From Pseudomonadales bacterium (GTDB lineage Bacteria; Pseudomonadota; Gammaproteobacteria; Pseudomonadales; UBA5518), in contig JACKOP010000005.1 in assembly GCA_024234165.1 (NCBI GenBank), positions 234,078 to 298,077 of the forward strand: a stretch of DNA of 64,000 nt, written 5' to 3'. Below the pieces are notes generated by a model. That model was not told the DNA's origin, ran no database searches, and saw only the letters and a program-made list of their open reading frames with translations. The position numbers and the translations under genes were made by a program. This document shows positions 2,548 through 37,830 of this stretch, piece after piece. How positions within the stretch are numbered: the stretch's first letter is position 1; each line of letters opens with the position of its first letter.

Positions 2548-2565
2548 GACCGGCGCGTGGCGAGG

Positions 2566-2668: not shown

Positions 2669-2875
2669 ATCTGTTGCGACATGTTCTTCATCCCCGCCTC
2701 CGGAACCACACCAGCAGCGGGTCGAGTATACGGAGGCGCACCCGCGGCTTCGCGTGACTGTGCAATCGTGCCATGCGTGCGTGCCATGCGTGTTGCGTGC
2801 CATGCGTGTTTGCCAAGTGCCCGGCTCTGGGGTAACTTCGCCGCCCCATTGATATTCCCGGCGGACGGACACGAG

Positions 2876-4540
<1,665 letters not shown>

Positions 4541-4558
4541 GTCTCTGCTGCACCCCGC

Positions 4559-4775
4559 GTAGGTCGGGTTTCAACCCATGTAGGTCGGGTTTCAACCCGA
4601 CAGGTGCCCGATCGGAGGCATACATCGTCGGCATGAATGCCGACCTACGCCCAACGCATGAATGCCGACCTACGCCCAACGCATGAATGCCGACCTACAC
4701 CCAACGCATGAATGCCGACCTACACCCAACGCATGAATGCCGGCCTGCGCCCAACGCGCGAATGCCGGCCTACGG
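4559..4775. repeat. REP-like hairpin cluster plus a 25-bp tandem array
   Basis: Two copies of GTAGGTCGGGTTTCAACCC (4559 and 4580). They are followed by about 5.8 tandem copies of GCATGAATGCCGACCTACGCCCAAC starting at 4631. Confidence 0.85.
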
Positions 4776-10088: not shown

Positions 10089-10149
10089 AGGCACGCGCAC
10101 ACCCCGGCGTCTCGAAGATCATTTTTTACCCGCACAGGAGGACTTCAAC

Positions 10150-12582: not shown

Positions 12583-12754
12583 GTCGGATTTCAATCCGAC
12601 GGTGTTGTGGGTCGGGTTTCAGCCCGACCGGGGCCGGCACAATCCCTGTCGGCATGAATGCCGACCCACATTTCCGTCGGCACGAATGCCGAGCCACGTA
12701 GGTCGGGTTTCAACCCGACAGGTGTGGCGATTCCCGTCGGCATGAATGCCGACC
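12579..12754. repeat. REP-like hairpin cluster (same families as 4559-4775)
   Basis: GTAGGTCGGATTTCAATCCGAC overlaps the TAG stop. It is followed by GTCGGGTTTCAGCCCGAC, GTCGGCATGAATGCCGAC (x2), GTCGGCACGAATGCCGAG and GTAGGTCGGGTTTCAACCCGAC. Confidence 0.85.
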
Positions 12755-22824: not shown

Positions 22825-23251
22825 CTGCGCCCCCCAATCGATGTGCCGACTGTAGGTGGCCGCGTCACGCCGCGGCATCCGCCGGCAGGGATGGGTCAGG
22901 CAAGGCAGAAGGAGGATGCGGCATCGTCCGAAGGAACTATGCCCATCGGCGGCGCGTCATCGTGACTCGACGGCGCAAGCTGACTGTTGGAGCAAGCAGC
23001 TCCCACGGGAGCGAGAGGAAATGGACGCCATGTTCTGGTCATCCGGCAGCATGCGTGCTATACGGCAAGTTGCCGCGAAAAAACACGGCGAACTTGCGAA
23101 CCTGATCGAAAGGAAAGACGAGCAGGATGTTGTTTTTCATGACTTTGGATTCTGGAGATTTTTTATCAGTGTTTGGATGGCGCTCGAAGTCGCTGCGTGC
23201 TAGATGGATGAGTGCCGTGTTACAACACGGACGATTCCCGTCCACTCACTG

Positions 23252-23624
23252 TTAGTTTCGCTCCGCTTTTCGTGCAGAAGACAAAGTTGATGCTGTTCAG
23301 CGCGCAGGCGTTGTTGCACCAGAAAGCGCTCGCCGTGATTTCGCCGAGTCGTGGTTCAAACCGAGCGGCTATCGGCCAACGGTGATATGCACCAGTTTTG
23401 GGGCATTTGCCGTTGTCAGCCGCTGACGTCAGTTGTTCCGCGCGCGACGGAGTCTGAGCCAGGCTTGTGTGCGTTTGGAGATATCGCAACGGGGCTTGCA
23501 AGCGTGTGGCCGCGCGCGGCAGAGTAAGGCTGGATAGCGCGCTGTGCGTGAAGTTTGGAAAGTCGAAACTAACCCATCGCTGCAGGCACGACGGCCCTGT
23601 CGGGCCGCGGCCTGAGCTCAAACG
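23252..23624 (+). mobile_element. gene cassette 1 (373 bp, no convincing ORF)
   Basis: Begins TTAGTT after G23251. Its attC R'' is AACTAAC, the exact complement of G+TTAGTT. Confidence 0.6.
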
Positions 23625-23630
23625 TTATGC
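23567..23630 (+). other. attC recombination site of cassette 1
   Basis: R'' is AACTAAC and R' is GTTATGC. Internal stems CAGGC/GCCTG and GGCCC/GGGCC. Confidence 0.7.
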
Positions 23631-23700
23631 GCTCTTGTGGCCGCGCAGCCTGATTCATGTGAAAATCTACGCCATTCTTCCTAGTCGGCACCCAATCTCC

Positions 23701-24339
23701 ATGAAATCCCCGAAGTTTGACCGTTCTAAGCATGTGTACCGAAACGATGCGTTCGCCGAATTGGTAAAGGACGCAGTTCGTTTCTTCAACGGGACCCCGG
23801 TTCATACGCTGCCTCCCCCAGAAGAATTTTTTGGAACGGGGGTATATGCGTTGTATTACACGGGCAAGAATCCGCAATACAAAAAGTACGCAGACCTAAA
23901 TCGGCTGGCTTACAGCCATCCAATTTATGTTGGCAAGGCTGTGCCAAAAGGCTGGCGGCAATCGCGAATCTCAGATGGCGAGGGGGTGCAGTCGAAGGAA
24001 CTGTATACGCGGTTGCGCGAGCATTCGAGGAGTATTACGCAGGGTGCCGGCTTAGAGCTTAAGGATTTCTCCAGCCGTTTCGTAATCTTCGAAAAAGAAG
24101 GCTCCGATATGATCGGAACCATTGAGGCTGCGCTAATTAAGTTAAACCGGCCGCTTTGGAATACCGCTGTTGATGGGTTTGGCAATCATGATCCCGGTAG
24201 TGGGCGCTATGAGCAGGCCAAGTCAGATTGGGATGTCATCCATCCTGGTCGATCTTGGGCAGAAAAATGTAATGGCCGTCCTACAGACAAGCGCACGATT
24301 CTCAGCAATATTGAGCGTCATCTTAAAAGTCTCGGGTGA
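23701..24339 (+). CDS. GIY-YIG restriction endonuclease, Eco29kI-like
   Basis: KFDRSKHVYRND, GVYALYYTG, PIYVGKAVPKGWRQSRI, IEAALIKLNRPLWNT, WDVIHPGRSWAEKC. From memory this resembles Eco29kI. It is immediately upstream of a C5-methyltransferase. Confidence 0.8.
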   Translation: MKSPKFDRSKHVYRNDAFAELVKDAVRFFNGTPVHTLPPPEEFFGTGVYALYYTGKNPQYKKYADLNRLAYSHPIYVGKAVPKGWRQSRISDGEGVQSKELYTRLREHSRSITQGAGLELKDFSSRFVIFEKEGSDMIGTIEAALIKLNRPLWNTAVDGFGNHDPGSGRYEQAKSDWDVIHPGRSWAEKCNGRPTDKRTILSNIERHLKSLG

Positions 24340-25511
24340 TTGCAATGCGTTCTTTGGAAGTGTTCTCGGGGGCCGGCGGCCTCGCAAAGGGCCTTGAGCA
24401 AGCGGGCTTCGAGCACTCTGCTTTTGTAGAGTTCAACAAGCATGCATGTGCATCACTCTCAGAGAACTTCACGCCAGAGAGAGTTTTCTTTGGAGACATA
24501 AGAGATTTTGATTTGGGTAGCGTGGGGTCTGTTGATGTTGTTGCAGGTGGCCCGCCGTGTCAGCCGTTCTCTCTTGGTGGCAAGCACAAAGCAGATCAAG
24601 ATGATCGAGACATGTTTCCTTATGCCATTAGAGCAATTGAGTTCCTTACGCCTAAGGCCTTTGTTTTTGAGAACGTAAAGGGCCTGCTTAGGCCAAGTTT
24701 CGCTGAGTATTTTGAATACATTATTCTTCGCCTTACTTATCCGGGCTTCTCAGCGAAGCCAAAGATGGCGTGGCAAGATCATCTGGCGCAACTTAGAGCG
24801 GCGAACAAGTTCGCGTACGCCGGCGTTAAGTATGACGTTCAATATAAACTCATAAACGCTGCGGACTATGGCGTTCCTCAAACCCGCGAGCGTGTGGTTA
24901 TCGTTGGAATTCGTTCAGACCTTAAGAAAACATGGTCCTTCCCGGCTGCAACACACTCGGAAGATCGGCTGCTTTGGGAAATGCATGTGTCGGGAGAGTA
25001 CTGGCGGCGGCACCGAGTGGCGCTTGCAAAGCGCCCCAGCATCGAACCGTCCATGCAAGAGCGGATCGCGCGCATCAACGAGCGTTATGGGCTCTTTGAG
25101 CCCGAACTTCTACCTTGGAAAACTGTGCGAGACGCGCTCCATGACGTTCCTGATCCACGGAGCAAGCATGGCATTGCAGACCACATCTTTAAGGATGGGG
25201 CGCGTAGTTACGCTGGCCACACTGGCAGTGATTATGACTGGCCTTCAAAGACCATTAAGGCCGGAGGCCATGGCGTGCCGGGCGGGGAGAACATGATCCG
25301 CTACGCGGATGAAAGCATTCGCTACTTCACCGTCTTTGAAGCAAAACGCATCCAAACCTTCCCGGATGATTTCATTATCAAAGGTGCGTGGGGCGAGGCA
25401 ATGCGTCAAATTGGCAACGCCGTCCCGGTTGCTCTAGGTGAAGTCTTTGGCACCCATCTTTGGTCGCTGCTCTCGAAAAAATATTCCGCTGCTAAGGCGT
25501 CTGCCAAGTAA
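24336..25511 (+). CDS. DNA (cytosine-5)-methyltransferase
   Basis: LEVFSGAGGL (motif I), GGPPCQPFS (motif IV), ENVKGL (motif VI), QTRERV, and GNAVPV (motif X). The GTG at 24336 overlaps the upstream stop. An alternative ATG lies at 24345. Confidence 0.93.
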   Translation: MIAMRSLEVFSGAGGLAKGLEQAGFEHSAFVEFNKHACASLSENFTPERVFFGDIRDFDLGSVGSVDVVAGGPPCQPFSLGGKHKADQDDRDMFPYAIRAIEFLTPKAFVFENVKGLLRPSFAEYFEYIILRLTYPGFSAKPKMAWQDHLAQLRAANKFAYAGVKYDVQYKLINAADYGVPQTRERVVIVGIRSDLKKTWSFPAATHSEDRLLWEMHVSGEYWRRHRVALAKRPSIEPSMQERIARINERYGLFEPELLPWKTVRDALHDVPDPRSKHGIADHIFKDGARSYAGHTGSDYDWPSKTIKAGGHGVPGGENMIRYADESIRYFTVFEAKRIQTFPDDFIIKGAWGEAMRQIGNAVPVALGEVFGTHLWSLLSKKYSAAKASAK

Positions 25512-25535
25512 TTGGCAATTAGTTTGAGTGTTCGC

Positions 25536-25589
25536 GCATAACGAATAGGGATAGGTCGCGCGCAGCCGCGACCTGATCCCGGGTTGAAC
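25536..25589 (+). other. attC recombination site of the R-M cassette
   Basis: GCATAAC-GAATAGGGATAGGTCGCG-CGCAGC-CGCGACCTGATCCCGG-GTTGAAC. The R'' GCATAAC is the complement of the cassette start G|TTATGC at 23624-23630. Confidence 0.85.
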
Positions 25590-25813
25590 AAGCCCGTGCC
25601 CTGGAGTGGCGAACGCTTTTTTATAGGGGAAAGCTTTTCGGACGTGTGAGGGCATCGTTGCCCGATCAGGCGGATGATTTTCACCAGACGAACGCGGCCC
25701 GCACCCGCGAGCGCAGCGTGTCTTGCCTGTCTGGATCCATCAGTGGCGCGAGGTCCTCCTCGGGAGTGGATTGCCGGCGAGCACACCACGCTCTCCGGGC
25801 CAGCGGATCATGT
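25584..25813 (-). mobile_element. truncated second copy of the recombinase/IS91 unit (transposase-distal end only)
   Basis: It is the reverse complement of about 31300-31536, with few mismatches. IS66 cuts it at 25814. Confidence 0.75.
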
Positions 25814-25834
25814 GTAAGCGGTCAAACGACGCCG

Positions 25835-27448
25835 TTATATCTTTCCGCAGGCGAGTATGGATTTCATGGGATCGTGGGCGAAGCGTGCCTTCCATTCTCG
25901 CGGCGTGAGCTCGACCGCCCGACTCGCCGGATGCACGCTGATGCGCTGCAGCACATCGACCAGGTAGGTGTAAGGATCCACGCCCTGTAGGCGGCAACTC
26001 ACCAGCAGGCTCTGGATAACCGCTACCCGCTCGGCACCGACCTCGGTCCAACAGAAGAGCCAATTGCGCCGTCCCATTGGAACCGCCCGCAGGCTGCGCT
26101 CCAGGTGGTTGGTGTCGATCGGCACATCCGGATCCGACAAGAACACCCGCAGGCTCGTCACCCGCGCCTTCGCGTACTGGATCGCCTTGGCGAGCGGGTT
26201 ACTCGGCAACAGATCCATGCGGTGGCACTGGTCGTCACACCAGTGCCAGAAGCGGTCGACGATCGGCTCGCTGTGCTGTGTTCGGTAAGCGAGCTTGTGT
26301 TCCCGGTCCAGGTTCTGTTCCCGGATGATCTGCTCGTGCCGGTACAGCGCGGCAATCATCGCCAGCGCCTCGGCCGCCGCCTGCGGTTCGGCATCCTGTG
26401 CCTGCTCGAAGCCTCGGCGGCAATGCGCCCAACAACTCGCGTGGGTAACGCCACCTTTGCGTGCCGCATAGGCGCTGTAGGCGGCGTAGCCGTCCGAGAG
26501 CAGCGTTCCCCGGAAGTCCGGCCCCAGGATTTTCTCGACATGGTGGTGCGCCCGGGTCGGCGCGTAGTGGAAGACGATCTCGTCGTCCTCGCCGTAGATC
26601 GGCCAGAGGTAGGCTGGCGCATCTTGCCCTGCTTCTCGCGTCCGCCTTGATCGGGGTCTCGTCCATCGCCACCACCGATCCGATCCGAGGAGGATGTGGG
26701 CGTGCTGGGCCGCTGCGATGGGGCGCAGCAGATCGATGGCCCGTCCGCTCCAGTTGCTGAGGCTGGTACGGCTCAGCTGGATGCCGCACTGGGCGATCCG
26801 CTGGTGCTGGCGATACAGCGGCAGGTGGTAGCAGAACTTGTCGACGAGCATTCCGGCCAGCAGGCTCACATCGGCCACGCAGCGCTCGAGCACGCTTGCC
26901 GGTGCCGGGGTGCTGACGATGCGCTGCTCTTCGACCAGCTTCCGGTCTGGTAGTGGTACTCGATGATCCCGTAGCTGCCCGGGCGTTGCGCCGCGGCGGT
27001 AGCTGACGCGCTCGGAGACCAGCTCGCGCCGATCCTCGGGTACGGCAGCAATCGCTGGATCGACGATGGTGACCACGTCGCGGGTGACATCCGGGCCAAA
27101 GCGCAATCCTGAGTCGTTCACCGCCGCATCGCGCACCTTGCGCTGGCGCGTGTAGGTGATCGACTGCTCGGGAGGCGGTGGGGATTTCTGCGGAGGTTCA
27201 AGCACACCGAGCGCATCGAGCAGGTTGCCCTGTACGGCGGGATCGATGACCAGTTGCTTTTCGCTCTTCTGCCCGAAGAGCTGGCGCTTGAACCAGTCGA
27301 GCTGCTGCTTCAGCGTTGCAATCTCGGCGCCGTACTGCTGCTTCAGCGTGCCGAGTTCCGTGCCAAACTTCTGCGTCATCGCGACCATCTGCACCGTAAG
27401 TTGCGCATTGGTTTGTTCGAGTTCGGCGATGCGCGAAGCGGTGTTCAA
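25835..27448 (-). pseudogene. IS66 TnpC transposase with two compensated frameshift patches
   Basis: Compared with copy 2, VVAMDETPIKAGREKQGKMRQ is replaced by out-of-frame DRWWRWTRPRSRRTREAGQDAP. LAQRPGSYGIIEYHYQTW is replaced by RGATPGQLRDHRVPLPDR. Confidence 0.75.
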
Positions 27449-27502
27449 GGGCGGAAAATACTGCAGGAAAACCGTGCCGCCATTGTACCGGAATGCCCCT
27501 GC

Positions 27503-27862
27503 TCATGCCGCTGTTCGGTAGCGTTTTCGCTGCCTTTTTATCTCGACGTCGACGCCTTCGAGCAGCGCCAGAAACTCGGTGGCGCACAGCGCACGTTTCA
27601 CGCGTCCATCGCGTGTCATCAGGCGGGCAAAGTGTCCGCGCTCGAGTCGCTTCGACCAGATCCAGTAGCCGCCCGTCTCGAAGCCGAGCACCTTGATCTG
27701 CGTGGCGCGGCGGTTGAGAAACGCGAACCATTGGCTGCTACTGCCCAGCGGGTCTTCTCCCAGGTGTTGCTTCACCCGCGCCGACAACCCATCGAACGAG
27801 CAGCGCATGTCGGTGGGCTCCAGACACAGCCAGATGCGCGATGCGCTGCTGACGCTCAGCAT
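27503..27862 (-). CDS. IS66 Orf2 (TnpB)
   Basis: MLSVSSASRIWLCLEPTDMRCSFDGLSARV. 119 aa, intact. Confidence 0.85.
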   Translation of the reverse strand: MLSVSSASRIWLCLEPTDMRCSFDGLSARVKQHLGEDPLGSSSQWFAFLNRRATQIKVLGFETGGYWIWSKRLERGHFARLMTRDGRVKRALCATEFLALLEGVDVEIKRQRKRYRTAA

Positions 27863-28200
27863 GGCGCGTCCCGGCGCAGCCGCAGCACAACGCCTGCGCC
27901 CAAATCAAGCTCTACTTCCCATGCGGGTGCGGCCGGTGACGCCTCGGTCTTGTCGACTATCGGTGCGGTCAATTCGACAAACAGCGCTTCAGGCCGAACA
28001 CCAACAGCGTCAACAACCCGTGCTCCGCGCAGCTTGCGCCGCCACAGCTCGAAGGTGCTCTTCGCCAGGCCGTGGCGGGTGCAGAACGCCTGCTGCGAAA
28101 CACCGCTTGCCTCGAACTCGCTGATCAACGCGCGCCACCGTGCCGCGCTGTGACGCGCATACTTGCGCACAGAACCTGAACCCGTCGATGCCGAACCCAT
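27856..28200 (-). CDS. IS66 Orf1 (TnpA, HTH)
   Basis: MGSASTGSGSVRKYARHSAARWRALISEFEASGVSQQAFCTRHGLAKSTFELWRRKL. Confidence 0.75.
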   Translation of the reverse strand: MGSASTGSGSVRKYARHSAARWRALISEFEASGVSQQAFCTRHGLAKSTFELWRRKLRGARVVDAVGVRPEALFVELTAPIVDKTEASPAAPAWEVELDLGAGVVLRLRRDAPC

Positions 28201-28288
28201 GGCGATACTCCTCCAACACCACTTCGTTGAAGCAGAGCATCGCGAAGGTTCAGACGGCATAACAGAACGGCGTGGTTTGGACGGTTAC

Positions 28289-28876
28289 CGCCTGATGGCG
28301 ATGCTCGAGGGCTGCGCAGAGCTCACGCTCGAGCGGCTGAACGAGGCCACGCAGGCCTGGGTCGAGATGGAGTACAACCGCCGTTCTCACAGCGAACTCG
28401 GCTGTTCTCCGCTGGCACGCTACGGCGACGGCACCGATGTCGGACGCGAGTGCCCCGGGAGCGAGCGGCTGCGCCAGGCGTTTCGCACCGAAGCCGTGCG
28501 CACCCAGCGGCGCTCCGACGGCACGTTCTCGCTCGAAGGCACACGCTTCGAGGTGCCCTCGCGCTACCGCCACCTCGCACGGCTCACGGTGCGCTACGCG
28601 CGCTGGGACCTGCGCACGGTCGAGCTGATCGATCCGCTGAGCGGGACGCCGATCTGTGCGCCCTACCCGCTGGACAAGACGGCTCACGCCAGCGCCGCGA
28701 GGCGCCTGCACGCAGTGCGCACGCCTCCGGTACCCGTGCTGCCCGACCCGCCGGCGCACAGCCCCATGGCGCCGCTGTTGCGCGCGCTCATGGTCGAGTA
28801 TGCCGCCACCGGGCTGCCCCCGGCCTACGTGCCCCTGTCCAACGACGCACCCCTTGCCGAGGATCCGCTGCGATGA
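28289..28876 (+). pseudogene. 5'-truncated Mu/Tn552-like DDE transposase (end of rve core plus Mu-transposase C-terminal domain)
   Basis: Begins abruptly at the IS66 end. WVEMEYNRRSHSELG and LTVRYARWDLRTVELID motifs. Confidence 0.65.
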
Positions 28877-29199
28877 ACAAGCAACTGCTCGCCCTTTATG
28901 GTCTGAAGTGGAATCCCTTCTCGCCCGAACTGCCCACCGAGGCGCTGCGCCTCACGCCGGCGGTGGAGAACTTCGCCTGGCGTATCGAGCACGCGCTCGT
29001 GCGCGAAGGCGGCTTCGCGCTGATCAGCGGCGATGTCGGTACGGGCAAGAGCGTGGCGCTGCGTCTGATCGCCGAGCGCCTCGCCCCCGTGCCGGATCTG
29101 ACCGTTGCCGCACTCACGCACCCGAGCGCCAACCTCGCCGACTTCTACCGCGAGCTCGGTGATCTGTTCGCCGTGGAGCTGCGCCCGCACAACCGCTGG
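28873..29199 (+). pseudogene. ExeA/TniB-like AAA ATPase, N-terminal fragment
   Basis: MNKQLLALYGLKWNPFSPELP, with Walker A GDVGTGKS. The reading frame is broken after ...RPHNRW by the 29200-31577 insertion. Confidence 0.75.
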
Positions 29200-29311
29200 T
29201 TGAACGAAGCCGCTTCGCGGCAGGAACAAGACGAGAAGAACGAGACGCCAAAACCGGGAAACTTCTCCGGCACCCCCAGGCCCGGGTGTGCATCACCAAA
29301 GGAGAAGCGAC

Positions 29312-30217
29312 ATGGATTCATCGGAGCAAACCCGTTTTGACGCACTGTACGCGAAGCATCTTAGAGCACTGAAGCTTCAAGGCAAGGCAGCGAAGACGAT
29401 CGATGGTTACGCACGAGTGCTGCGCCGGGTAGCCGCACACTTCGATCGCTGTCCGGATCGACTGGACGCGGAAGACTTCAAGTCCTACTTCGCCTCGCTG
29501 ATCGACGAGCGATCGTGGAGCCTGGTGAAGATCGAACGCTGCGGACTGCAGTTCTTCTACGAACACGTCCTGGAGCGGGAGTGGCCGTGGGTGGGCATGC
29601 TCAAGCCGCCGGTGGTGCACGCGCTGCCCGATGTGCTCAGCGTCGACGAGGTCGCACAGATCATCCGGGCGAGTCGCGAGCGGCGCTACCGGACGTTCTG
29701 GCTGACGACCTACAGCCTGGGCCTGCGTCTGGGCGAAGCGCTGCGGTTGCGGATCGGTGATATCGACAGCGCCCGTGCCCAGGTCCATATCCGCAGCGGC
29801 AAGGGGCACAAGGACCGCTTCGTGGTGCTGCCGGCACTGACCCTGCAGTGCCTGCGCCGCTACTGGCGTGATCATCGCCACCATGAGCTGTTGTTTCCAG
29901 GGCGTGCTGGACCGCAGGGTATTCCGGCTGCCACCTTCATGGATCGCGGCAGCACCCAGAAGGCGTTTGCCCGTGTCGTGGCCGACTGCGGCATCCGCAA
30001 GCGGGTGTCGATCCACAGTCTTCGCCATGCCTACGCCACCCACCTCATCGAAGTCGGCCTGAATCTGCGCGGTGTGCAGGAACTGCTCGGTCATGCCTGC
30101 CCGAAAACCACGGCGCGCTATGTGCACATGACGGACAAGTGCCGTGATGATCGCCGCGTGCTGATCGACGGCTTGATGGGCGAGTTGCACCAGCGTCTGC
30201 GGGAGGCTCGGTCATGA
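29312..30217 (+). CDS. tyrosine recombinase (XerD/IntI-like, without the IntI-specific insertion)
   Basis: AAGGAG sits 7 nt upstream of the ATG. LQFFYEHVLEREWPW, GLRLGEALRLRIGDID, GKGHKDR, SLRHAYATHL, LLGHACPKTTARYVH (R-K-H-R-H-Y set). Confidence 0.85.
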   Translation: MDSSEQTRFDALYAKHLRALKLQGKAAKTIDGYARVLRRVAAHFDRCPDRLDAEDFKSYFASLIDERSWSLVKIERCGLQFFYEHVLEREWPWVGMLKPPVVHALPDVLSVDEVAQIIRASRERRYRTFWLTTYSLGLRLGEALRLRIGDIDSARAQVHIRSGKGHKDRFVVLPALTLQCLRRYWRDHRHHELLFPGRAGPQGIPAATFMDRGSTQKAFARVVADCGIRKRVSIHSLRHAYATHLIEVGLNLRGVQELLGHACPKTTARYVHMTDKCRDDRRVLIDGLMGELHQRLREARS

Positions 30218-30250
30218 CCCAAGCCCTCGCCCCCCCTGCGTCTGGCCGAG

Positions 30251-31285
30251 GTGTTCGACGCCGGACACGCCGCCCTGATGGCGCGCTACGGAGCGCGCCT
30301 GCACCCCCGACAACACCAGGCGATGGCCGCCATCCGGGGCTGCCGAAGCGGTGAGCTCGGTGAACTGCACTGGCGCTGTCCCGACTGCAGTGCACGACAC
30401 CACACGCCCCGCTCCTGTGGTCATCGCAGCTGCCCGGCCTGCCAGAACCACTGCACCTCGCAGTGGCTCGATCGGCAACGCCGTAAGCTCCTGCCCGTGG
30501 ACTACTTCATGGTGACCTTTACCTTGCCGGCACCCTTGCGTGCCGCCGCGCAGGCGTACCCCGAAACCGTCTATGCCGCCTTGTTTCGCGCCGCCTCGCA
30601 GACCCTCAACGGTTTCGCGACGCGAAAGCTCAAGGCGGAACTCGGCCAATGCGCGGTACTGCACACCCACAACCGTCGTCTCGATCTGCACCCGCACGTG
30701 CACGTCATCGTGCCCGGAGGCGCAATCGATGCGCGGCGCCGGCAGTGGCGAAAACTCTCCGGGCGTTACCTCTTCAACGCCTTTGCCCTGGCCCGGGTGT
30801 TCCGCGCCCGTATGCTGCAGGCCCTGCAGCTCGCCGGCGTGCCGATCCCTGTCGGCCTGCCGCCGAAATGGGTGGTCGACTGTCGCCGTGTCGGTCGTGG
30901 CGAGCCGGCATTGCAGTACCTCTCGCGCTACCTCTATCGGGGTGTCATCCGCGAGCGCGACCTCCTCGACTACGACCGCCTCGCCGGCACCGTCACCTTC
31001 CGCTACCGTGACGCCAAGACCCGCCAGCCCGCACAGCGCACCCTGCCCATCGCCGAGTTCCTGTGGCGCGTGCTCGCCCACGTCCTGCCGACCGGATTCC
31101 GTCGTGTGCGCGAGTACGGATTCCTGCACTGCCGAGCCAGGCGACGCCTCGTTCTCGTGCAACTCGTCTTGCATGTGCTGGTCCAGGCGGCAACGTTGCG
31201 ACCACGCCCACCGCTGTGTTGCATGCGCTGCCATACCCCGATGATCGTCGTCGCCGTCACCAAACGCCGCAGACCCGACGGCTGA
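30251..31285 (+). CDS. IS91-family HUH-Y2 rolling-circle transposase (N-terminus uncertain or frameshifted)
   Basis: Zn-finger CPDCSARHHTPRSCGHRSCPACQ, HUH motif HPHVHVIVPGG, Y2 motif YLSRYLYRG. An ATG at 30214 (ATGA with the upstream stop) is out of frame by one C in a C7 run. Confidence 0.85.
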   Translation: MFDAGHAALMARYGARLHPRQHQAMAAIRGCRSGELGELHWRCPDCSARHHTPRSCGHRSCPACQNHCTSQWLDRQRRKLLPVDYFMVTFTLPAPLRAAAQAYPETVYAALFRAASQTLNGFATRKLKAELGQCAVLHTHNRRLDLHPHVHVIVPGGAIDARRRQWRKLSGRYLFNAFALARVFRARMLQALQLAGVPIPVGLPPKWVVDCRRVGRGEPALQYLSRYLYRGVIRERDLLDYDRLAGTVTFRYRDAKTRQPAQRTLPIAEFLWRVLAHVLPTGFRRVREYGFLHCRARRRLVLVQLVLHVLVQAATLRPRPPLCCMRCHTPMIVVAVTKRRRPDG

Positions 31286-31529
31286 GGCAACGTTCGCGGA
31301 TCGCCACATGATCCGCTGGCCCGGAGAGCGTGGCGTGCTCGCCGGCAATCCACTCCCGAGGAGGACCTCGCGCCACCGATGGATCCAGCCAGGCAAGACG
31401 TGCTGCGCTCGCGGGTGCGGGCCGCGTTCGCCTGGTGAAAATCATTCCGCCTGATCGGGCAACGACGCCCTCACGCGTCTGAAAAGCTTTCCCCTATAAA
31501 AAGCGTTCGCCACTCCGGGGCACGGGCTT

Positions 31530-31577
31530 GTTCAACCCGGGATCAGGTCGCGGCTGCGCGCGACCTATCCCTATTCG
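31530..31577 (+). other. attC-like site at the end of the recombinase/IS91 unit
   Basis: GTTCAAC-CCGGGATCAGGTCGCGG-CTGCGC-GCGACCTATCCCTATTC-G. G plus the unit's first 6 nt TTGAAC gives GTTGAAC, the complement of GTTCAAC. Confidence 0.7.
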
Positions 31578-32052
31578 ATGGGCTTCAAGGCGCTGCGTAC
31601 CCGCTGGATCGCCCATCTGGAGAGCACGCGGCTTCGCCCCGTGCTGCTGATCGACGAGGCGCAACAGGTCGCCCCGCTCGTGCTCTCGGAGTTGCGCCTG
31701 CTCGCCTCGGCGCACTTCGACTCGCGCAGCCTGCTGAGCGTCGTGCTCGCCGGCGACCAGCGTCTGAACGAGTTGCTGCGCCGCGACGAACTCCTGCTGC
31801 TCGGTTCGCGCATCCGCGCACGCCTCTCGCTGGAGTACGCCAGCCGCGAGGAACTGCTGGCCTGCCTGAAGCACCTGCTCGCAAGCGCCGGCGCCCCGCT
31901 CTGATGACACCCGAGCTGATGCACACCGTCTGCGACCACGCCATGGGTAACTACCGTGCGCTCACCACCATGGCCGCGGAACTGCTCGCCGCCGCCGCGC
32001 AGCGCGAGCTCGTCCAGCTCGACGAGAAGCTGTACCTCGCGGTGTTCACGCC
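31578..32052 (+). pseudogene. ExeA/TniB-like AAA ATPase, C-terminal fragment with an additional frameshift near 31895
   Basis: GFKALRTRWIAHLESTRLRPVLLIDEAQ (Walker B) continues the N-terminal fragment. The frame changes at ...SAGAPL* / MTPELMHTVCDHAMGNYRAL. Confidence 0.65.
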
Positions 32053-32445
32053 CCGGGGCAATCCGCCGGCACGCGCCGCACCCGGCTCACCAGCGCTTGA
32101 GCCGGCAACCATGAAATCGTCCCGGCACCACCCCATCGAATTCCCGAGCAGCTCAGCGACGAGGGCGCGGCACACATCCTCGACTTCCTCTACGAGGTGA
32201 TCCGCGCCTTCGAGTCGCGCTACTTCGTGCAGATCCGTCGCCACCATCGCCACACCGCCGCTGAGTACGCCGCCCAGCGCGCCGAGCGCACCCAGCTCGA
32301 ACTGCCCTCACAATCCCCGACGAGCCGTCCGACCCGGTCTTCTGAGCCATCGTCAGACCGTCGCCACAGCGCCTCGCAGCCGCCGGGCGCTGCGGTTGCG
32401 TCGCACCCAAAACGCGGTCGACACCGGCAGCGCCAATGCCGGACA

Positions 32446-32682
32446 CCTCGCAATATCACATCACGGCTGCAGACCATCAGAAAGCGTGATCAGCTCGCCA
32501 TCGATTACCGTGGTCATGCTCAGGTTACGGACGACTTGCGGGTTCCTCCGGGTAATCGGCTCGAAGCGCTGAGGGGCAGAAGATCTGGCCAGTACAGCAT
32601 TCGTATCAACGATCAATGGCGCGTCTGTTTTCGTTGGGCCGACTCAGGTGTCGAAGACGTCGAGATCGTGGATTACCACTGA
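32446..32682 (+). pseudogene. higB: HigB-like toxin lacking its N-terminus and start codon
   Basis: [49 protein letters not shown]. There is no in-frame start, and it is fused in frame to transposon-derived sequence upstream. Confidence 0.6.
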
Positions 32683-32694
32683 GGTGATGTTGTC

Positions 32695-33033
32695 ATGAGC
32701 AAGCTCGATCCCATTACTCCCGGCAAACTTCTCTTGGAGGAGTTCCTAGCGCCTATGGGGATCAGCCAGTACCGCCTGGCGAAGGAAGTCGATGTGCCGG
32801 CGCAGCGCATCAGCGAAATCGTTTCTGGCAAGCGCGCCATTACTGCGGATACGGACTTGCGGCTGTGCCGTTTCTTCGGTCTTTCCAGCGGCTACTGGTT
32901 GCGTGCGCAGGCCGCGCACGATACGGAGGTTGCCGAGAGGGAACTCGGCCCGGTTCTGAAGCGGATCAAACCATGGGCAGCAAATGCGACCGAACAACAC
33001 GGCGCAGCGGACGCCTCTTCGAGGCGCCGCTGA
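32695..33033 (+). CDS. higA: HigA-family antitoxin (XRE HTH)
   Basis: ITPGKLLLEEFLAPMGISQYRLAKEVDVPAQRISEIVSGKRAITADTDLRLCRFFG. Confidence 0.85.
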   Translation: MSKLDPITPGKLLLEEFLAPMGISQYRLAKEVDVPAQRISEIVSGKRAITADTDLRLCRFFGLSSGYWLRAQAAHDTEVAERELGPVLKRIKPWAANATEQHGAADASSRRR

Positions 33034-33048
33034 CCGCCATCGTTAGCC
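32992..33048 (+). other. probable attC site of the higBA cassette
   Basis: R' GTTAGCC (33042-33048) defines the next cassette start. It has an imperfect hairpin GGCGCAGCGGACGCC / GGCGCCGCTGACCGCC. The R'' GAACAAC is weak. Confidence 0.45.
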
Positions 33049-33053
33049 CCGCT

Positions 33054-33371
33054 TCAAATACCGGTAATGAGCAAGTCGAGAGCAGCAATAATTTCGTCAC
33101 GCTTCGAAGAAAGATCGATCGCCTTCGCTCCAAGCATCTTCTTCGGAACGCCGGCCAGTTGCGGCGTCACCATGACGTACTGCTTACCTTCAATCTCAAA
33201 GACTGGAGTCAACGTTTCGAGGATCTTTCCTTTCATCGCAGCTACTGAGTAGAGGGGCGCCACAACTCGCGTGGCCAGATCTTCAATCAGATCGCTTTGA
33301 ACGTTGAGCAGATAAGGAACGGTGCTCTTGGTGTCAGGGTTGGCGTTCTTGTGAACGGAAAATTGCGTCAT
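33054..33371 (-). CDS. ccdB: CcdB-family gyrase toxin
   Basis: MTQFSVHKNANPDTKSTVPYLLNVQSDL...LTPVFEIEGKQYVMVTPQLAGV. 105 aa. Confidence 0.85.
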   Translation of the reverse strand: MTQFSVHKNANPDTKSTVPYLLNVQSDLIEDLATRVVAPLYSVAAMKGKILETLTPVFEIEGKQYVMVTPQLAGVPKKMLGAKAIDLSSKRDEIIAALDLLITGI

Positions 33372-33616
33372 CAGAAGTTCCGCAGTCCGTCGCTGAATAC
33401 GCCGTGCTTCTCTACGTGGTCGTTATAGGCGTCAATCGAGGCCTTATTGTCGGCTAGCCATTTGGCCTTCTGTTTCTCCCGCAGGGCATTGGCCAGAGCC
33501 TGCTCCAGGGTGGCGGACAGGTTTATGTCCAATTCCTTGGCTTTGGTGAGCAAGTCCCCGTTAACGCTGAGATTTGCAGGTCGCTTGGGGGCATGGGTAT
33601 CGTAGGTCGGCACCAT
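33371..33616 (-). CDS. ccdA: CcdA-family antitoxin
   Basis: 81 aa. KRPANLSVNGDLLTKAKELDINLSATLEQAL. Its stop abuts the ccdB start. Confidence 0.8.
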   Translation of the reverse strand: MVPTYDTHAPKRPANLSVNGDLLTKAKELDINLSATLEQALANALREKQKAKWLADNKASIDAYNDHVEKHGVFSDGLRNF

Positions 33617-33688
33617 AGCGGGCTCCCTCTGGGGTTTGTATGCGCATACGATATACGCATATCAAGGCGCAAGCCAGTGTGGTGGCGG

Positions 33689-33766
33689 GGCTAACGAATA
33701 GGTGAGCCTGACCAGACTACCCTCCGCGCTGCGCGCTCCGGCGGCGGCTCATGCACGCCGTTAGGG
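33689..33766 (+). other. attC site of the ccdAB cassette
   Basis: R'' is GGCTAAC, the complement of the cassette start G|TTAGCC. R' is GTTAGGG. Internal stem TGAGCC/GGCTCA. Confidence 0.8.
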
Positions 33767-33979
33767 TTGCTTGGCAAGTGCTTGCGCCAGCGTCATCGCG
33801 ATCGCCGGGAATTCCTTGAGTATCTTCTTGTCGGCAGTAACGAGTTTCGCGTTCAGGCGCTTTGCCAGCGCAACAAACTCACAGTCGTACGCAGAGCACT
33901 CGCTGGATTCCACCAGCCTCAGGACGTCGAGGGAGGGAACTTCATATTCCGAATCTGCGTAAGCGGTCAAACGACGCCG

Positions 33980-35590
33980 TTATATCTTTCCGTAGGCGAG
34001 TATGGATTTCATGGGATCGTGGGCGAAGCGTGCCTTCCACTCGCGTGGCGTGAGCTCGACCGCCCGACTCGCCGGATGTTCGCTGATGCGCTGCAGTACA
34101 TCGACCAGGTAGGTGTAGGGGTCAACGCCCTGTAGGCGGCAACTCACCAGCAGGCTCTGGATAACCGCTACCCGCTCGGCACCGACCTCGGTCCAACAGA
34201 AGAGCCAATTGCGCCGTCCCATTGGAACCGCCCGCAGGCTGCGCTCCAGGTGATTGGTGTCGATCGGCACATCCGGATCCGACAAGAACACCCGCAGACT
34301 CGTCACACGCGCTTTTGCGTACTGGATCGCCTTGGCGAGCGGGTTACTCGGCAACAGATCCATGCGGTGGCACTGGTCGTCACACCAGTGCCAGAAGCGG
34401 TCGACGATCGGCTCGCTGTGCTGTGTTCGGTAAGCGAGCTGGTGTTCCCGGTCCAGGTTCTGTTCCCGGATGATCTGCTCGTGCCGGTACAGCGCGGCGA
34501 TCATCGCCAGCGCTTCGGCCGCCGCCTGGGGTTCGGCATCCTGTGCCTGCTCAAAGCCTCGGCGGCAATGCGCCCAGCAACTCGCGTGGGTGACGCCACC
34601 CTTGCGTGCCGCATAGGCGCTGTAGGCAGCGTAGCCGTCCGAGAGCAGCGTTCCCCGGAAGTCCGGACCCAGGATCTTCTCGACATGGTGGTGCGCCCGG
34701 GTCGGGGCGTAGTGGAAGACGATCTCGTCGTCCTCGCCGTAGATCGGCCAGAGGTAGGCCTGGCGCATCTTGCCCTGCTTCTCGCGTCCCGCCTTGATCG
34801 GGGTCTCGTCCATCGCCACCACCGATCCACTGAGGATGTGGGCGTGCTGGGCCGCTGCGATGGGGCGCAGCAGATCGATGGCCCGTCCGCTCCAGTTGCT
34901 GAGGCTGGTGCGGCTCAGCTGGATGCCGCACTGGGCGATCCGCTGGTGCTGGCGATACAGCGGCAGGTGGTAGCAGAACTTGTCGACGAGCATTCCGGCC
35001 AGCAGGCTCACATCGGCCACGCAGCGCTCGAGCACGCTTGCCGGTGCCGGGGTGCTGACGATGCGCTGCTCTTCGACCAGCTTCCAGGTCTGGTAGTGGT
35101 ACTCGATGATCCCGTAGCTACCCGGGCGTTGCGCCAGGCGGTAGCTGACGCGCTCGGAGACCAGCACGCGCCGCTCCTCGGGTACGCCAGCAATCGCCGG
35201 ATCGACGATGGTGACCACGTCGCGGGTGACATCCGGACCAAAGCGCAGTCCCGAGTCGTTCACCGCCGCATCGCGCACCTTGCGCCGGCGCGTGTAGGTA
35301 ATCGACTGCTCGGGAGGCGGTGGGGACTTCTGCGGAGGTTCAAGCACGCCGAGTGCATCGAGCAGGTTGCCCTGCACGGCAGGATCGATGCTCAGCTGCT
35401 TCTCGCTCTTCTGCCCGAAGAGCTGACGCTTGAACCAGTCGAGCTGCTGCTTCAGCGCTGCGATCTCGGCGCCGTACTGTTGCTTCAGTGTGCTGAGATC
35501 CGCGCCAAATTTCTGCGTCATCGCGGCCATCCGCACCGTGAGTTGCGCATTGGTGTGTTCGAGTTCGGCGATGCGCGAAGCGGTGTTCAA
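33980..35590 (-). CDS. IS66 TnpC DDE transposase (apparently intact)
   Basis: 536 aa. Contains VVAMDETPIK and the C-terminal CWAHCRRGF region. Confidence 0.9.
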   Translation of the reverse strand: MNTASRIAELEHTNAQLTVRMAAMTQKFGADLSTLKQQYGAEIAALKQQLDWFKRQLFGQKSEKQLSIDPAVQGNLLDALGVLEPPQKSPPPPEQSITYTRRRKVRDAAVNDSGLRFGPDVTRDVVTIVDPAIAGVPEERRVLVSERVSYRLAQRPGSYGIIEYHYQTWKLVEEQRIVSTPAPASVLERCVADVSLLAGMLVDKFCYHLPLYRQHQRIAQCGIQLSRTSLSNWSGRAIDLLRPIAAAQHAHILSGSVVAMDETPIKAGREKQGKMRQAYLWPIYGEDDEIVFHYAPTRAHHHVEKILGPDFRGTLLSDGYAAYSAYAARKGGVTHASCWAHCRRGFEQAQDAEPQAAAEALAMIAALYRHEQIIREQNLDREHQLAYRTQHSEPIVDRFWHWCDDQCHRMDLLPSNPLAKAIQYAKARVTSLRVFLSDPDVPIDTNHLERSLRAVPMGRRNWLFCWTEVGAERVAVIQSLLVSCRLQGVDPYTYLVDVLQRISEHPASRAVELTPREWKARFAHDPMKSILAYGKI

Positions 35591-35647
35591 GGGCGGAAAA
35601 TACTGCAGGAAAACCGTGCCGCCATTGTACCGGAATGCCCCTGTTGT

Positions 35648-36003
35648 TCATGCCGCTGTTCGGTAGCGTTTTCGCTGCCTTTTTATCTCGACGTCGACGC
35701 CTTCGAGCAGCGCCAGAAACTCGGTGGCGCACAGCGCGCGTTTCACGCGTCCATCACGTGTCATCAGGCGTGCAAAGTGTCCGCGCTCGAGTCGTTTCGA
35801 CCAGATCCAGTAGCCGCCCGCCTCGAAGCCGAGCACCTTGATCTGCGTGGCGCGACGGTTGAGAAACGCGAACCATTGGCTGCCACCCAGTGGGTCTTCT
35901 CCCGGTGTTGCTTCACCCGCGCCGACAACCCATCGAACGAGCAGCGCATGTCGGTGGGCTCCAGACACAGCCAGATGCGCGATGCGCTGCTGACGCTCAG
36001 CAT
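35648..36003 (-). pseudogene. IS66 Orf2 (TnpB), frameshifted
   Basis: Relative to copy 1 it has a 3-nt and a 1-nt deletion (CCCAGGTG to CCCGGTG). This splits MLSVSSASRIWLCLEPTDMRCSFDGLSARVKQH from ...DPLGGSQWFAFLNRRATQIKVLGFE. Confidence 0.7.
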
Positions 36004-36046
36004 GGCGCGCGCCCGGCGCAGCCGCAGCACCACGCCTGCGCCCAAA

Positions 36047-36343
36047 TCAAGCTCTACTTCCCATGCGGGTGCGGGCTGGTGACGCCTCGGTCTTGTCGAC
36101 TATCGGTGCGGTCAATTCGACAAACAGCGCTTCGGGCCGAACGCCCGCCACATCAGCGTTTCGGGTTTCGCGTAGCTTGCGCCGCCACAGCTCGAAGGTG
36201 CTCTTCGCCAGGCCGTGGCGGGTGCAGAACGTCCGCTGCGAAACGCCGCTCGCCTCGAACTCGCTGATCAGCACGCGCCACTGTGCCGCGCTGTGGCGCG
36301 CATACTTGCGCACGGAATCTGAACCCGTCGATACCGAACCCAT
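36047..36343 (-). CDS. IS66 Orf1 (TnpA) with an altered, shortened C-terminus
   Basis: 98 aa. It diverges from copy 1 after ...DKTEASPA because of a 1-nt insertion. Confidence 0.6.
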   Translation of the reverse strand: MGSVSTGSDSVRKYARHSAAQWRVLISEFEASGVSQRTFCTRHGLAKSTFELWRRKLRETRNADVAGVRPEALFVELTAPIVDKTEASPARTRMGSRA

Positions 36344-36648
36344 GGCGATACTCCTCCAACACCACTTCGTTGAAGCAGAGCATCGCGAAGGTTCAGACGG
36401 GATAACAGAACGGCTTCGTTTGGCCGGTTACGAATCTGCGAGCAGAGTCTCGGCTTCAGTTTGAATGGAATAGGCGTGCTCGAAGGAAAGCAGCTCCTTT
36501 CTTATATATAGCGCAAGCACATTGCGCAGCTCGCTGCGCCAAAGTGCGGGGGCGGCCCAATGAGGTTCCTTTGCCAGCAGCTGCTCTGCCTCGGCGCTGA
36601 GGTCTGAGGGCAGGTAGAGGTAGGCAATGATGTTGCTATCAACAACGA

Positions 36649-36894
36649 TCACGGGCGGCCTTCATCTATGGCCTCGAGAATATCGGCCGCTTTGAACTTC
36701 TTGCCCTTGAGGCTCTCCCGAATCTGCCGAGCGCGGGCCATATGCTCCTCATTGCTGGCCTTGGAAGGCAGCAAGACCCGCTCCAGGCAGGCTATGGCTT
36801 CGCTGTTAATGCTCCGGTGGTGGGCATCGGCAGCCTGCTTGAGGCTGTCGTAGATCTCATCGGGTATGTTCTTGAGGGTAATGGTTGCACCCAT
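36649..36894 (-). CDS. Arc/FitA-like ribbon-helix-helix antitoxin (VapB-type)
   Basis: 81 aa. MGATITLKNIPDEIYDSLKQAADAHHRSINSEAIACLE. Its stop overlaps the disrupted PIN gene start. Confidence 0.75.
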   Translation of the reverse strand: MGATITLKNIPDEIYDSLKQAADAHHRSINSEAIACLERVLLPSKASNEEHMARARQIRESLKGKKFKAADILEAIDEGRP

Positions 36895-36956
36895 AGCGGC
36901 TTACCTTGGAACCATATTGGAACCAATATGGTATCTCTGGGCGCCGGGCGGAGCAA

Positions 36957-37010
36957 CCCTAACGAATAGGGATAGGTCGCGCGCCGCCGCGACCTGAGCC
37001 CGGGTTAGGG
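36957..37010 (+). other. attC site of the vapBC::IS66 cassette
   Basis: CCCTAAC-GAATAGGGATAGGTCGCG-CGCCGC-CGCGACCTGAGCCCGG-GTTAGGG. R'' is the complement of the cassette start G|TTAGGG at 33760. Confidence 0.88.
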
Positions 37011-37391
37011 CCGCTCTACGCGTCGTTCCGTATGCTTCTTGGTATTCTTGATGAAGTTGGCGTCGAAGGTCTTGAGCGTGTCCTGATCCTTGCTTAGTGC
37101 AAGATGAAACGCATCGGCAAAGTCGAATCCCACCTCGTGCCAGGCAATGACCTGGGCAATGAGCGTGCCGTCGCTAACTGTCACGTTTTGTAGGCCACAT
37201 ACGCGCCGGAATGCGGTGCATATGTCTGCTGGGGTTAAGTCGAAGGCGGCGCGTAATACCCACTCGGTTTCCAGCAGCACGGTGTCCGGAATGAAGATGT
37301 CTTCGGAAGCGAAGAGTTTGTGGCTGGCTTTGCTCTGGATCGCGTTGTCGCTGACCAGCAGCCGTACCAGTACATTGGTATCAATTGCCAT
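37005..37391 (-). CDS. PIN-domain toxin (VapC family)
   Basis: MAIDTNVLVRLLVSDN...IFIPDTVLLETEWVL...DFADAFHL. Confidence 0.85.
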   Translation of the reverse strand: MAIDTNVLVRLLVSDNAIQSKASHKLFASEDIFIPDTVLLETEWVLRAAFDLTPADICTAFRRVCGLQNVTVSDGTLIAQVIAWHEVGFDFADAFHLALSKDQDTLKTFDANFIKNTKKHTERRVERP

Positions 37392-37644
37392 CACGCCACT
37401 TACTCCGCATGTCGTGAGCCAATGCTGCCGCAATTTCCTCGTCCGTCTTCGGGGATACCTTATCTTTGAACATGCCAAAGACCTCGGAGAGGTCCGAGGG
37501 GGCAAAAGTGGCCTTGGGCTTAAGCAGGAGGCCGTCCCCGGTGTCTATCACCATGAGTTCAAGGCCGGGCTCCCAGTGATGGGTGCTCCGGAAGGCCTTG
37601 GGTATGATCACTTGGCCTTTGCTGGAGAGTTTAGTGGTTTCCAT
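37381..37644 (-). CDS. AbrB/MazE/SpoVT-family antitoxin
   Basis: METTKLSSKGQVIIPKAFR. 87 aa. 11-nt overlap with the PIN gene. Confidence 0.85.
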   Translation of the reverse strand: METTKLSSKGQVIIPKAFRSTHHWEPGLELMVIDTGDGLLLKPKATFAPSDLSEVFGMFKDKVSPKTDEEIAAALAHDMRSKWRDGN

Positions 37645-37715
37645 AAGGGCGCCCTAAAAGTAAGACGAAGGTAAGATTATGCCTGCGGGGCCTGCCTGTC
37701 AAATCGAGCAGGCTG

Positions 37716-37769
37716 CCCTGACAAATAGGGATAGCCCGCGCGCAACCGCGACCTGATCCCGGATTGAAC
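37716..37769 (+). other. attC site of the PIN/AbrB cassette (slightly degenerate)
   Basis: CCCTGAC-AAATAGGGATAGCCCGCG-CGCAAC-CGCGACCTGATCCCGG-ATTGAAC. R'' has one mismatch to the complement of the cassette start TTAGGG. R' has A in place of G. Confidence 0.7.
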
Positions 37770-37830
37770 AAGCCCGTGCCCCGGAGTGCCGGGCCAAAGG
37801 TTTTCCAGTCCGGCAAGCCTTGGCGGCAGG

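Follow-up and report, generated by a model that had tools for sequence, protein, structure and literature searches.

IS91-family elements with an integron-integrase-like recombinase and attC-like ends occupy inverse-core boxes of integron attC sites

How does a mobile element move when it encodes two enzymes of DNA transfer and carries ends that resemble those of an integron cassette? This question is raised by an element at positions 29200-31577 of a 64,000-nt stretch of DNA from a Pseudomonadales bacterium (contig JACKOP010000005.1, positions 234,078 to 298,077; 'the window' below means this whole stretch). An earlier note, made from the sequence alone, had described the segment as a tyrosine recombinase and an IS91-type transposase packaged as an integron-style cassette on the strand opposite to a nearby cassette array. 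Our analysis places it in an IS91-family subgroup with an IntI-like recombinase upstream of the Y2 HUH transposase. Its identity, ends, exact junctions, rule of orientation and terminal hairpin can be given with high confidence.

The element interrupts an ExeA-like ATPase gene, as had been claimed. The two halves of this gene match positions 4-64 and 69-130 of the AAA_22 profile, and in protein searches the uninterrupted homologues of the joined halves (best P0001, 99% identical) read ...RPHNRWMGFKALR..., with no residue gained or lost. Moreover, an empty copy of the site reads CACAACCGCTGG|ATGGGCTTC (L023:2791-2809, on the contig that encodes P0001; a vertical bar marks a junction or cut throughout), and its flanks are 99% identical to the window over 1,860 bp. 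Comparison of the filled site with the empty one (CTGG|ATGG) reveals neither target duplication nor loss, and leaves the junction ambiguous by one base (G). The insertion therefore measures exactly 2,378 bp and its target was G|AT, which upholds the breakpoint proposed earlier. This location in the ExeA-like gene is a secondary, non-attC target. The same gene carries a second lesion, a frameshift near 31901 (within 31895-31910) relative to intact homologues that read ...SAGAPALMTPELM..., and is thus a pseudogene twice over.

The first bases of the element are TTGAAC at 29200, and the last are GTTCAAC (31530-31536) followed by 40 nt and a G (31577). These ends, the two genes and a CTTGTTC at 31527-31533 all agree with the earlier description. 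The sequence ATAGGGATAGGTCGCG occurs 4-5 times in the window (0.28 expected), and the left-end 24-mer occurs once (0 expected).

Published work describes the IS91-family terIS as a subterminal palindrome beside GTTC, and the target tetranucleotide GTTC/CTTG as abutting oriIS (PMC13181058); our comparison of ends rests on that description. The left-end pattern TTGRAC-SAAGCCGC-N3-4-GCGGC is kept in all related loci and, when read on the transferred strand, presents the palindrome followed by TTC-GTYC-AA. By its sequence this end appears to fit the terIS description except for the extra AA (PMC13181058). A comparison with terIS cleavage at GTTC/CTCG likewise found palindromes at both ends and GTYC after the left one, with the observed junction 2 nt beyond GTYC.

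The two ends jointly form an attC-like site. If the element is circularised, the terminal G joins the left TTGAAC to form GTTGAAC, which pairs with the GTTCAAC that precedes the end by 41 nt. Read on the non-coding strand, the junction then consists of a GTTCAAC R box, an unpaired GAATA (5 nt), GGGAT-AGGTCGCG, a loop, CGCGACCT, a bulged G, ATCCC, two unpaired nucleotides and GTTGAAC. Folding of both strands of the circular junction gave bulged and strand-asymmetric hairpins of -17.2 and -17.4 kcal/mol (z -4.4 and -4.5) with R boxes of 7-8 bp. In its longer 5' spacer and its 3'-arm bulge, this strand has the same polarity as the bottom strand of an attC; taken alone, the element is thus a normally oriented cassette with its coding strand as the top strand.

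The hairpin is conserved among relatives, in which the right end reads GGGCTTGTYCAAC, 4-5 nt, GGATAAGATCGYG, a loop and CRCGATCTATCCTTATTCG. Across 15 homologous sites 92% of cells pair, compensatory changes are present in 7 pairs, and the covariation score is 0.419, compared with 0.179 for shuffled and at most 0.166 for slid controls. The cassette topology claimed previously is thus borne out by the complementarity of GTTCAAC to G plus TTGAAC across the circular junction and by the bulged hairpin, but the site is not a canonical attC. The left end also has a terIS-like palindrome and GTYC, for which an ordinary cassette would have no need.

The best NCBIfam family for the recombinase is the integron integrase, with scores below the cut-offs for membership (146 versus 265 bits for TIGR02249 and 103 versus 435 bits for PRK15417), and its catalytic set is complete (R139, K167, H235, R238, H261 and Y270). 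The best match in the PDB is VchIntIA (2A3V), in which IntI residues 172-240 (69 aa) stand opposite residues 176-208 (33 aa) of the query, leaving about 36 residues missing. Tyrosine recombinases of IS91 elements are reported as the closest homologues of IntI and as lacking the IntI insertion (bioRxiv 10.1101/542381), and the gap in our alignment agrees with that report. The transposase scores 349 bits on NCBIfam NF033538 (IS91 transposase; cut-off 125) and has the CPDC/CPAC zinc, HPHVH and YLSRY motifs. Its ancestral ATG at 30214 overlaps the recombinase stop codon (ATGA, 30214-30217), and a C7 run at 30230-30236 shifts the frame; mutation, an error in sequencing or slippage at the run could each account for this.

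In many relatives the recombinase gene is split into two frames at a conserved A8-9 run (ATTAAAAAAAAGTC; L005:~860, L007:~850, L008:~400, L009:~1215, L012:~5755, L014:~1120, L015:~620 and L147). The split lies between ...CGIKKK and VSIHSLRH, just 5' of the catalytic HxxR box; the window gene reads CGIRKRVSIHSLRH in a single frame. This run looks like a site of programmed -1 frameshifting or transcriptional slippage, and suggests that the recombinase may be regulated like a transposition enzyme.

Related elements are widespread. A transposase scan of one genome per species recovered 22 loci at 41-79% identity, whose hosts include Lysobacterales, other Gammaproteobacteria, Gemmatimonadaceae, Desulfobacteraceae, Spirochaetes, Motilimonas and Photobacterium. 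Nearly all of these loci, and many metagenome loci, have the recombinase gene directly upstream of the transposase gene, and the two genes are co-oriented with overlapping or adjacent stop and start codons in the window, L001-L015, L018, L019 and L150. A metagenome scan with the left-end motif added at least 120 contigs, and the two scans together yielded at least 22 further complete copies of 2.02-2.45 kb from many phyla.

Among the matches listed, 22 further complete copies share the ends of the window element. The element always ends in G (CTATCCTTATTCG|TT) and its right flank is always TT, while the base before TTGRAC is G in 20 copies and A in the other two. In a G|TT crossover this varying base belongs to the target, which supports the G|TT reading. 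Read on the transferred strand, the ori-side flank is ..CCAT in the window and RYYYAA in the 22 other copies. The two ends also vary together: all 10 elements with TTGG left ends have a GTCC R'' box, and the R'' box matches the left end in 16 of 23 elements.

The cassette topology and the G|TT junctions could be taken to mean that the recombinase alone excises and integrates the element, which would be a cassette encoding its own enzyme and carrying the transposase as a passenger or a decaying relic. The frameshift in the start region of the window transposase fits this account, as does a 1,137-bp internally deleted derivative that keeps both ends. We nevertheless consider it improbable, because selection is implied by an intact transposase open reading frame that stays linked to the recombinase gene across phyla (41-79% identity), because the terIS-like palindrome is conserved, and because no member with the recombinase alone was seen among the listed complete copies.

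The clearest view of the target is provided by an E. coli IncC plasmid (NZ_LT985243.1) whose class 1 integron has the order intI1, aac(6')-Ib3, aadA2, cmlA1, aadA1, element, qacEdelta1 and sul1, with the genes of the element on the strand opposite to the cassettes. The left junction reads ...GTCGGCTTGAAC-GAATT-G|TTGAACGAAGCC... and the right junction ...CCTATCCTTATTTG|TTAGACATTATTTGCC...; the element sits inverted between the GTCTAA and the C of the R'' (inverse-core, 1L) box of the aadA1 attC. Removal of the element in silico restores the canonical attC of aadA1, whose bottom strand carries its T and G bulges on the 3' arm. This attC served as the control for a classifier of hairpin orientation, by which the surplus bases fall on the 3' arm (element coding strand) in 30 of the 36 scorable hairpins that flank left ends. 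A first automated classifier was unreliable, with folding constraints left unenforced, and was replaced.

The same arrangement recurs elsewhere. In a Motilimonas array the neighbouring cassette open reading frames are all on the strand opposite to the element, and the array copy in the window (25542-25814) also obeys the inverted R'' rule. Its site abuts GCGCATAA|C, the R'' box of a restriction-modification cassette, and GCGCATAAC complements the start of that cassette, G|TTATGCGC, at 23625. The preferred target is the RYYYAA|C R'' box on the top strand of a resident attC, and copies in cassette arrays are inverted. The 'opposite strand' noticed in the window is therefore a general property of the family, seen at the aadA1 attC, in the flanking hairpins, in Motilimonas, in the window array and in the metagenome contig described next.

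This contig (L123:1-3192) holds three consecutive toxin-antitoxin cassettes with an element or a remnant at each R'' box. The 1,137-bp derivative occupies 866-2002; its right end matches the window site at all 48 nt, and its flank TTATGCGCG matches that of the window array copy. Folding of the attC sites reconstructed from this contig gave no clean hairpins, and we relied on the aadA1 attC instead.

We also considered that the window array might run on the minus strand, in which case the element would be an ordinary co-directional cassette. At the canonical-type attC at 23570-23632, surplus bases occupy the 5' arm when the plus strand is read, so the top strand of the array is the plus strand; the aadA1 attC agrees, and the proposal was rejected. 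Orientation likewise bears on whether the element is merely an ordinary cassette that encodes an insertion sequence and is moved in trans by a host integron integrase. Its attC-like site, the presence of relatives in cassette arrays, the IntI1 encoded on the E. coli plasmid and the element-type solo cores that flank other cassettes can all be cited for such passive movement. However, copies are inverted at R'' and not co-directional at R' or attI as bottom-strand recombination by IntI would give, and the site travels with the element in Desulfobacteraceae, Lysobacterales, Vibrionales-like and other hosts, whatever the attC type of the host. Furthermore, no second tyrosine recombinase or IntI was found in the 64-kb window (no homologue at E below 0.04), and none lies up to 6 kb away from the element at the 22 genome loci. 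We regard passive movement as very improbable, and as the least likely of the explanations considered.

Which enzyme, then, makes the junctions? AA|C (G|TT) is the bond cut by IntI, inside the IntI recognition box. Element and target share a single base, which excludes classical double-strand site-specific recombination over a 6-8-bp overlap; that candidate was rejected, and exchange of a single strand fits. In the mechanism that we favour, the Y2 transposase would copy the element out by rolling-circle replication as a bottom-strand single-stranded circle, ending at the terIS-like palindrome and GTYC. This circle would fold the attC-like hairpin, the element's own recombinase would exchange one strand at GTYCAA|C with a partner target ..A(A/T)|(C/T), and replication would resolve the product.

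Several features lead us to favour a recombinase route. The cut falls on the IntI bond in an IntI box, and the closest relative of IntI is encoded intact by the element. It takes circularisation for the two ends to pair as an R box. IS91 is reported to insert only as a bottom-strand circle (PMC13181058), and this is the strand that folds here like an attC bottom strand. Finally, the route explains why both genes, the terIS-like palindrome and the GTYC in both boxes are conserved. Strand exchange by the recombinase is, in our view, somewhat better supported than not, and the 'cassette chemistry' of the earlier note would be correct to that extent. Supply of the single strand by the transposase is a closer matter, on which we lean slightly the other way. 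For the reading as a whole, recombinase exchange on a circle supplied by the transposase, our preference is a modest one.

The main competitor needs only the transposase. By this account Y2 would nick after ..YAA (or ..AAC) at the ori-side flank, the left end and the target, and would both excise and insert the element by a rolling circle; the target preference would match the AAC of attC R boxes by chance, and the recombinase would be an accessory for multimer resolution, regulation or occasional excision. Hallmarks of IS91 are indeed present, namely a Y2 enzyme, insertion without duplication, a subterminal palindrome at each end and GTYC next to the left one (PMC13181058). The IS91 target tetranucleotide resembles the one cleaved at terIS, and here the ..YCAA| of the left end similarly resembles the ..CTAA|, ..ATAA| and ..CCAT| of the targets. 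The unpaired CGAATA on the junction side is conserved in sequence, as for an HUH nick site, and the polarity of the inserted strand agrees with the finding that IS91 inserts from its bottom-strand circle only (PMC13181058).

On the other hand, the targets differ from GTTC/CTTG and do not have the position-2 T found invariably in IS91 (PMC13181058). An IS91-type HUH cut at GTTC|AAC was rejected for the window insertion, where no AA precedes CGAATA at the right junction. That a transposase should cut the exact IntI bond in an IntI box beside an intact relative of IntI would be an unparsimonious coincidence, and the 7-bp complementarity of R'' and R' across the junction would be left unexplained. 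We judge a transposase-only route, both in its cutting scheme and in its chance match to attC, to be unlikely though well short of negligible.

A number of observations weigh against the two-enzyme mechanism that we prefer. The same junctions would result if a Y2 transposase cut after ..AA, both at GTYCAA| in the left end and in the targets. The site departs from canonical attC in its internal loop (5x2 rather than about 5 and 6 nt) and in having one bulge, not two; its unpaired bases (GAATA) and both arms are conserved in sequence across phyla, unlike those of canonical attC. The analogy with IntI may not transfer to a recombinase without the domain that reads extrahelical bases. Transposases of relatives begin M..LRLAxLF in frame, whereas the window copy has lost the ancestral start by a 1-base frameshift, and the exact recombinase protein was found in a single genomic context in 8 contigs, with no sign of recent repeated movement. 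In a distant subfamily (see below) the left hairpin motif is the same and the junction lies 8-16 nt from TTGAAC. Lastly, the favoured mechanism leaves unexplained the preference for top-strand R'' over bottom-strand R'. As a guess, the 5-nt spacing after the R box, shared by the element site and attC top strands, or exposure of the lagging strand might account for it.

Hairpin cores of the element type also occur alone. Some lie between unrelated cassettes and are flanked by the R boxes of those cassettes (for example 36955-37012 in the window and L004:12284-12338). The restriction-modification unit at 25533-25589 similarly ends directly on a core, but there the core continues into a truncated copy of the element. 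These arrangements suggest that an alternative resolution may leave the core behind as the attC of a neighbour. A fuller proposal would be a two-enzyme transposon in which Y2 makes a bottom-strand single-stranded circle, its ends fold into a mimic of attC, the relative of IntI, without the domain that reads extrahelical bases, pastes it at AA|C in top-strand inverse-core boxes or at R|WT secondary sites, and leftover cores (with the restriction-modification and toxin-antitoxin cassettes of the window and L004:12284-12338 as candidate examples) make the element a donor of attC sites. We advance this proposal only tentatively and think it rather unlikely as a whole.

The remaining features of the window are collected in the table. 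All copies of the element lie within a lower-GC island (approximately 23000-37800) between narK and narXL, which also contains an Eco29kI-type restriction-modification pair, toxin-antitoxin pairs, two IS66 copies and an rve/ATPase transposon. The terminal 48-nt site (31530-31577) recurs exactly, in reverse complement, at 25542-25589. That identity had been reported correctly, whereas the label 'array attC' given to the second site does not hold: homology continues for 273 nt, and the site forms the outermost part of another copy, which IS66 has cut. The two cores at 36955-37012 and 37712-37791 have the same orientation as this copy.

Features of the element and its surroundings in the window
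Feature	Position	Strand	Description
Canonical-type attC	23570..23632	+	5' of restriction-modification cassette; surplus bases on + strand 5' arm
Last 273 nt of second element copy	25542..25814	-	95-99% identical to 31305-31577; inverted in cassette array; cut by IS66 at 25814/25815
5' part of interrupted ExeA-like AAA_22 ATPase gene	28873..29199	+	Part of rve-transposase/ATPase transposon
Complete mobile element, 2,378 bp	29200..31577	+	Left end, recombinase gene, transposase gene, attC-like right end; absent from empty site L023
Left end	29200..29223	+	TTGAAC (TTRRRY half of R' box), then terIS-like palindrome GCCGC (29209-13)-TTC-GCGGC (29217-21)
Tyrosine recombinase, 301 aa	29312-30217	+	IntI-like without IntI-specific insertion; Phage_int_SAM_4 (PF13495) and Phage_integrase (PF00589)
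IS91-family Y2 HUH transposase	30214..31285	+	Open frame 30251-31285 from GTG 30251; Zn_Tnp_IS91 (PF14319) and Y2_Tnp (PF04986)
Right end	31524..31577	+	GGGCTTG; R''-like GTTCAAC (31530-36); CC; stem GGGAT (31539-43); bulged C (31544); stem AGGTCGCG (31545-52); loop (31553-58); CGCGACCT (31559-66); ATCCC (31567-71); unpaired TATTC (31572-76); G (31577)
3' part of interrupted ATPase gene	31578..32150	+	Also frameshifted near 31901
Solo element-type hairpin core	36955..37012	+	Flanks CCCTAAC and GTTAGGG; between two toxin-antitoxin cassettes
Degenerate element-type core	37712..37791	+	With 22 nt of element 3' tail

Homology to the element tail ends exactly at 37791/37792, the right edge of the island beside a membrane-protein gene and narXL; the island border thus lies inside an element remnant. 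The two IS66-family copies are direct and 91-100% identical (25815-28262 and 33956-36410). The first has cut into the rve transposase gene as well as into the array copy of the element; matching target duplications are therefore not expected, and the pair suggests a rearrangement between the copies. Outside the island, 4555-4798 and 12575-12724 hold a 25-bp tandem repeat (six overlapping matches to a 68-nt reference, with starts spaced by 25 nt, at 4606-4798) and hairpins resembling repetitive extragenic palindromes (GTAGGTCGGGTTTCAACCCGAC).

Other loci add detail to the family. The distant subfamily of recombinase plus IS91 transposase (about 35% identity) comprises L068, L121, L127, L078 and about 40 other metagenome loci. 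Left ends there read ..AAGCCGAC-TTGAAC or TTCCCAGAAGCCCGT-TTGAAC, and the right end is a long hairpin with an upstream TTCAAGTCG that complements the left-end CGACTTGAA, the same design with the junction elsewhere. At L020:638-760 two element-type sites stand in tandem, the second starting at the G|TTCAAC that closes the first, as if one copy had inserted into GTT within the R'' box of another. The Motilimonas array (L011) contains a repeat of about 1.9 kb twice (about 1225-3280 and 8900-10850), whose long open reading frames (1359-2661, and 9020-10309 with 429 aa) lie on the strand of the cassette genes. These putatively encode a group II intron reverse transcriptase.

A search of the plasmid collection for other copies of the E. 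coli plasmid's element returned one full copy and a 252-nt right end. The latter stands alone on a plasmid of Shewanella sp. ANA-3 (L151; NC_008573.1:42430-42681; 94.8% identity), a hint that the class 1 integron copy came from Shewanella. Among complete genomes of E. coli there was no match.

That IS91 elements can carry a recombinase related to IntI is already established (bioRxiv 10.1101/542381), and the novelty claimed in the earlier note was overstated in this respect. The literature that we searched contains no account of the conserved ends, of G|TT junctions, of the cassette topology, of targeting to the inverse core, of the inverted orientation or of what the recombinase does in IS91 members that carry one. 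If the favoured mechanism is correct, an enzyme that makes single-stranded DNA by rolling circle is coupled to a recombinase that needs folded single-stranded DNA, a pairing for which no precedent was found in the literature. As the nearest relative of IntI without the IntI-specific domain, the recombinase offers a natural experiment on what sets strand choice in integron recombination. The formation of cassettes is a long-standing open question in integron biology, and the cores that stand alone on unrelated cassettes are a lead on the origin of attC sites. If they are indeed left behind by the element, they would provide a concrete route to new cassettes, and the element might be related to the ancestor of the integron system. 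One copy has already reached a clinical class 1 integron, between aadA1 and qacEdelta1.

Set beside known systems, the element shares with the IS91 family (IS91, IS801, IS1294 and the related ISCR elements) a Y2 HUH enzyme with an N-terminal zinc domain, the absence of inverted terminal repeats and of target duplication, palindromes at both ends with GTYC by the left one, and a transposase gene that reads toward the ori-like end. It differs in its additional IntI-like recombinase, in a flank of RYYYAA (CCAT in the window) rather than GTTC/CTTG, in a junction 2 nt beyond GTYC, and in ends that pair as an attC-like R box. Several IS91 members in ISfinder presumably have an upstream 'phage integrase' open reading frame (ISAzo26, ISSod25, ISSde12, ISMno23 and ISWz1). 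ISShvi3 has been seen beside an attC in a Shewanella integron (PMC9229058). Members with an upstream recombinase, ISShvi3 included, have the same gene pair, and the element almost certainly belongs to the same subgroup.

With integron cassettes the element has in common the TTRRRY after G, an imperfect palindrome closed by G, pairing of R'' and R' on circularisation, a bulged and strand-asymmetric hairpin, a crossover at the IntI bond (G|TT, that is AA|C) and insertion at a G|AT secondary site. Unlike them, it encodes its own recombinase and transposase, is inverted at R'' rather than placed at R' or attI, and has arm and loop sequences conserved across phyla. IntI itself (IntI1, VchIntIA) is the nearest relative of the recombinase both by NCBIfam profile and by solved structure, and shares its SAM-like N-terminal and catalytic domains; the recombinase lacks about 36 residues of the IntI-specific insertion, scores far below the family cut-off and is encoded in a mobile unit, not beside attI. 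Finally, the IS1111-attC group (IS110 family) and the group IIC-attC introns also home to attC at a fixed position and orientation, the introns usually opposite to the cassettes (PMC9229058). The element would be a third kind of attC-homing element beside these two, which rely on a DEDD transposase or on a ribozyme and reverse transcriptase and neither carry nor leave an attC-like site.

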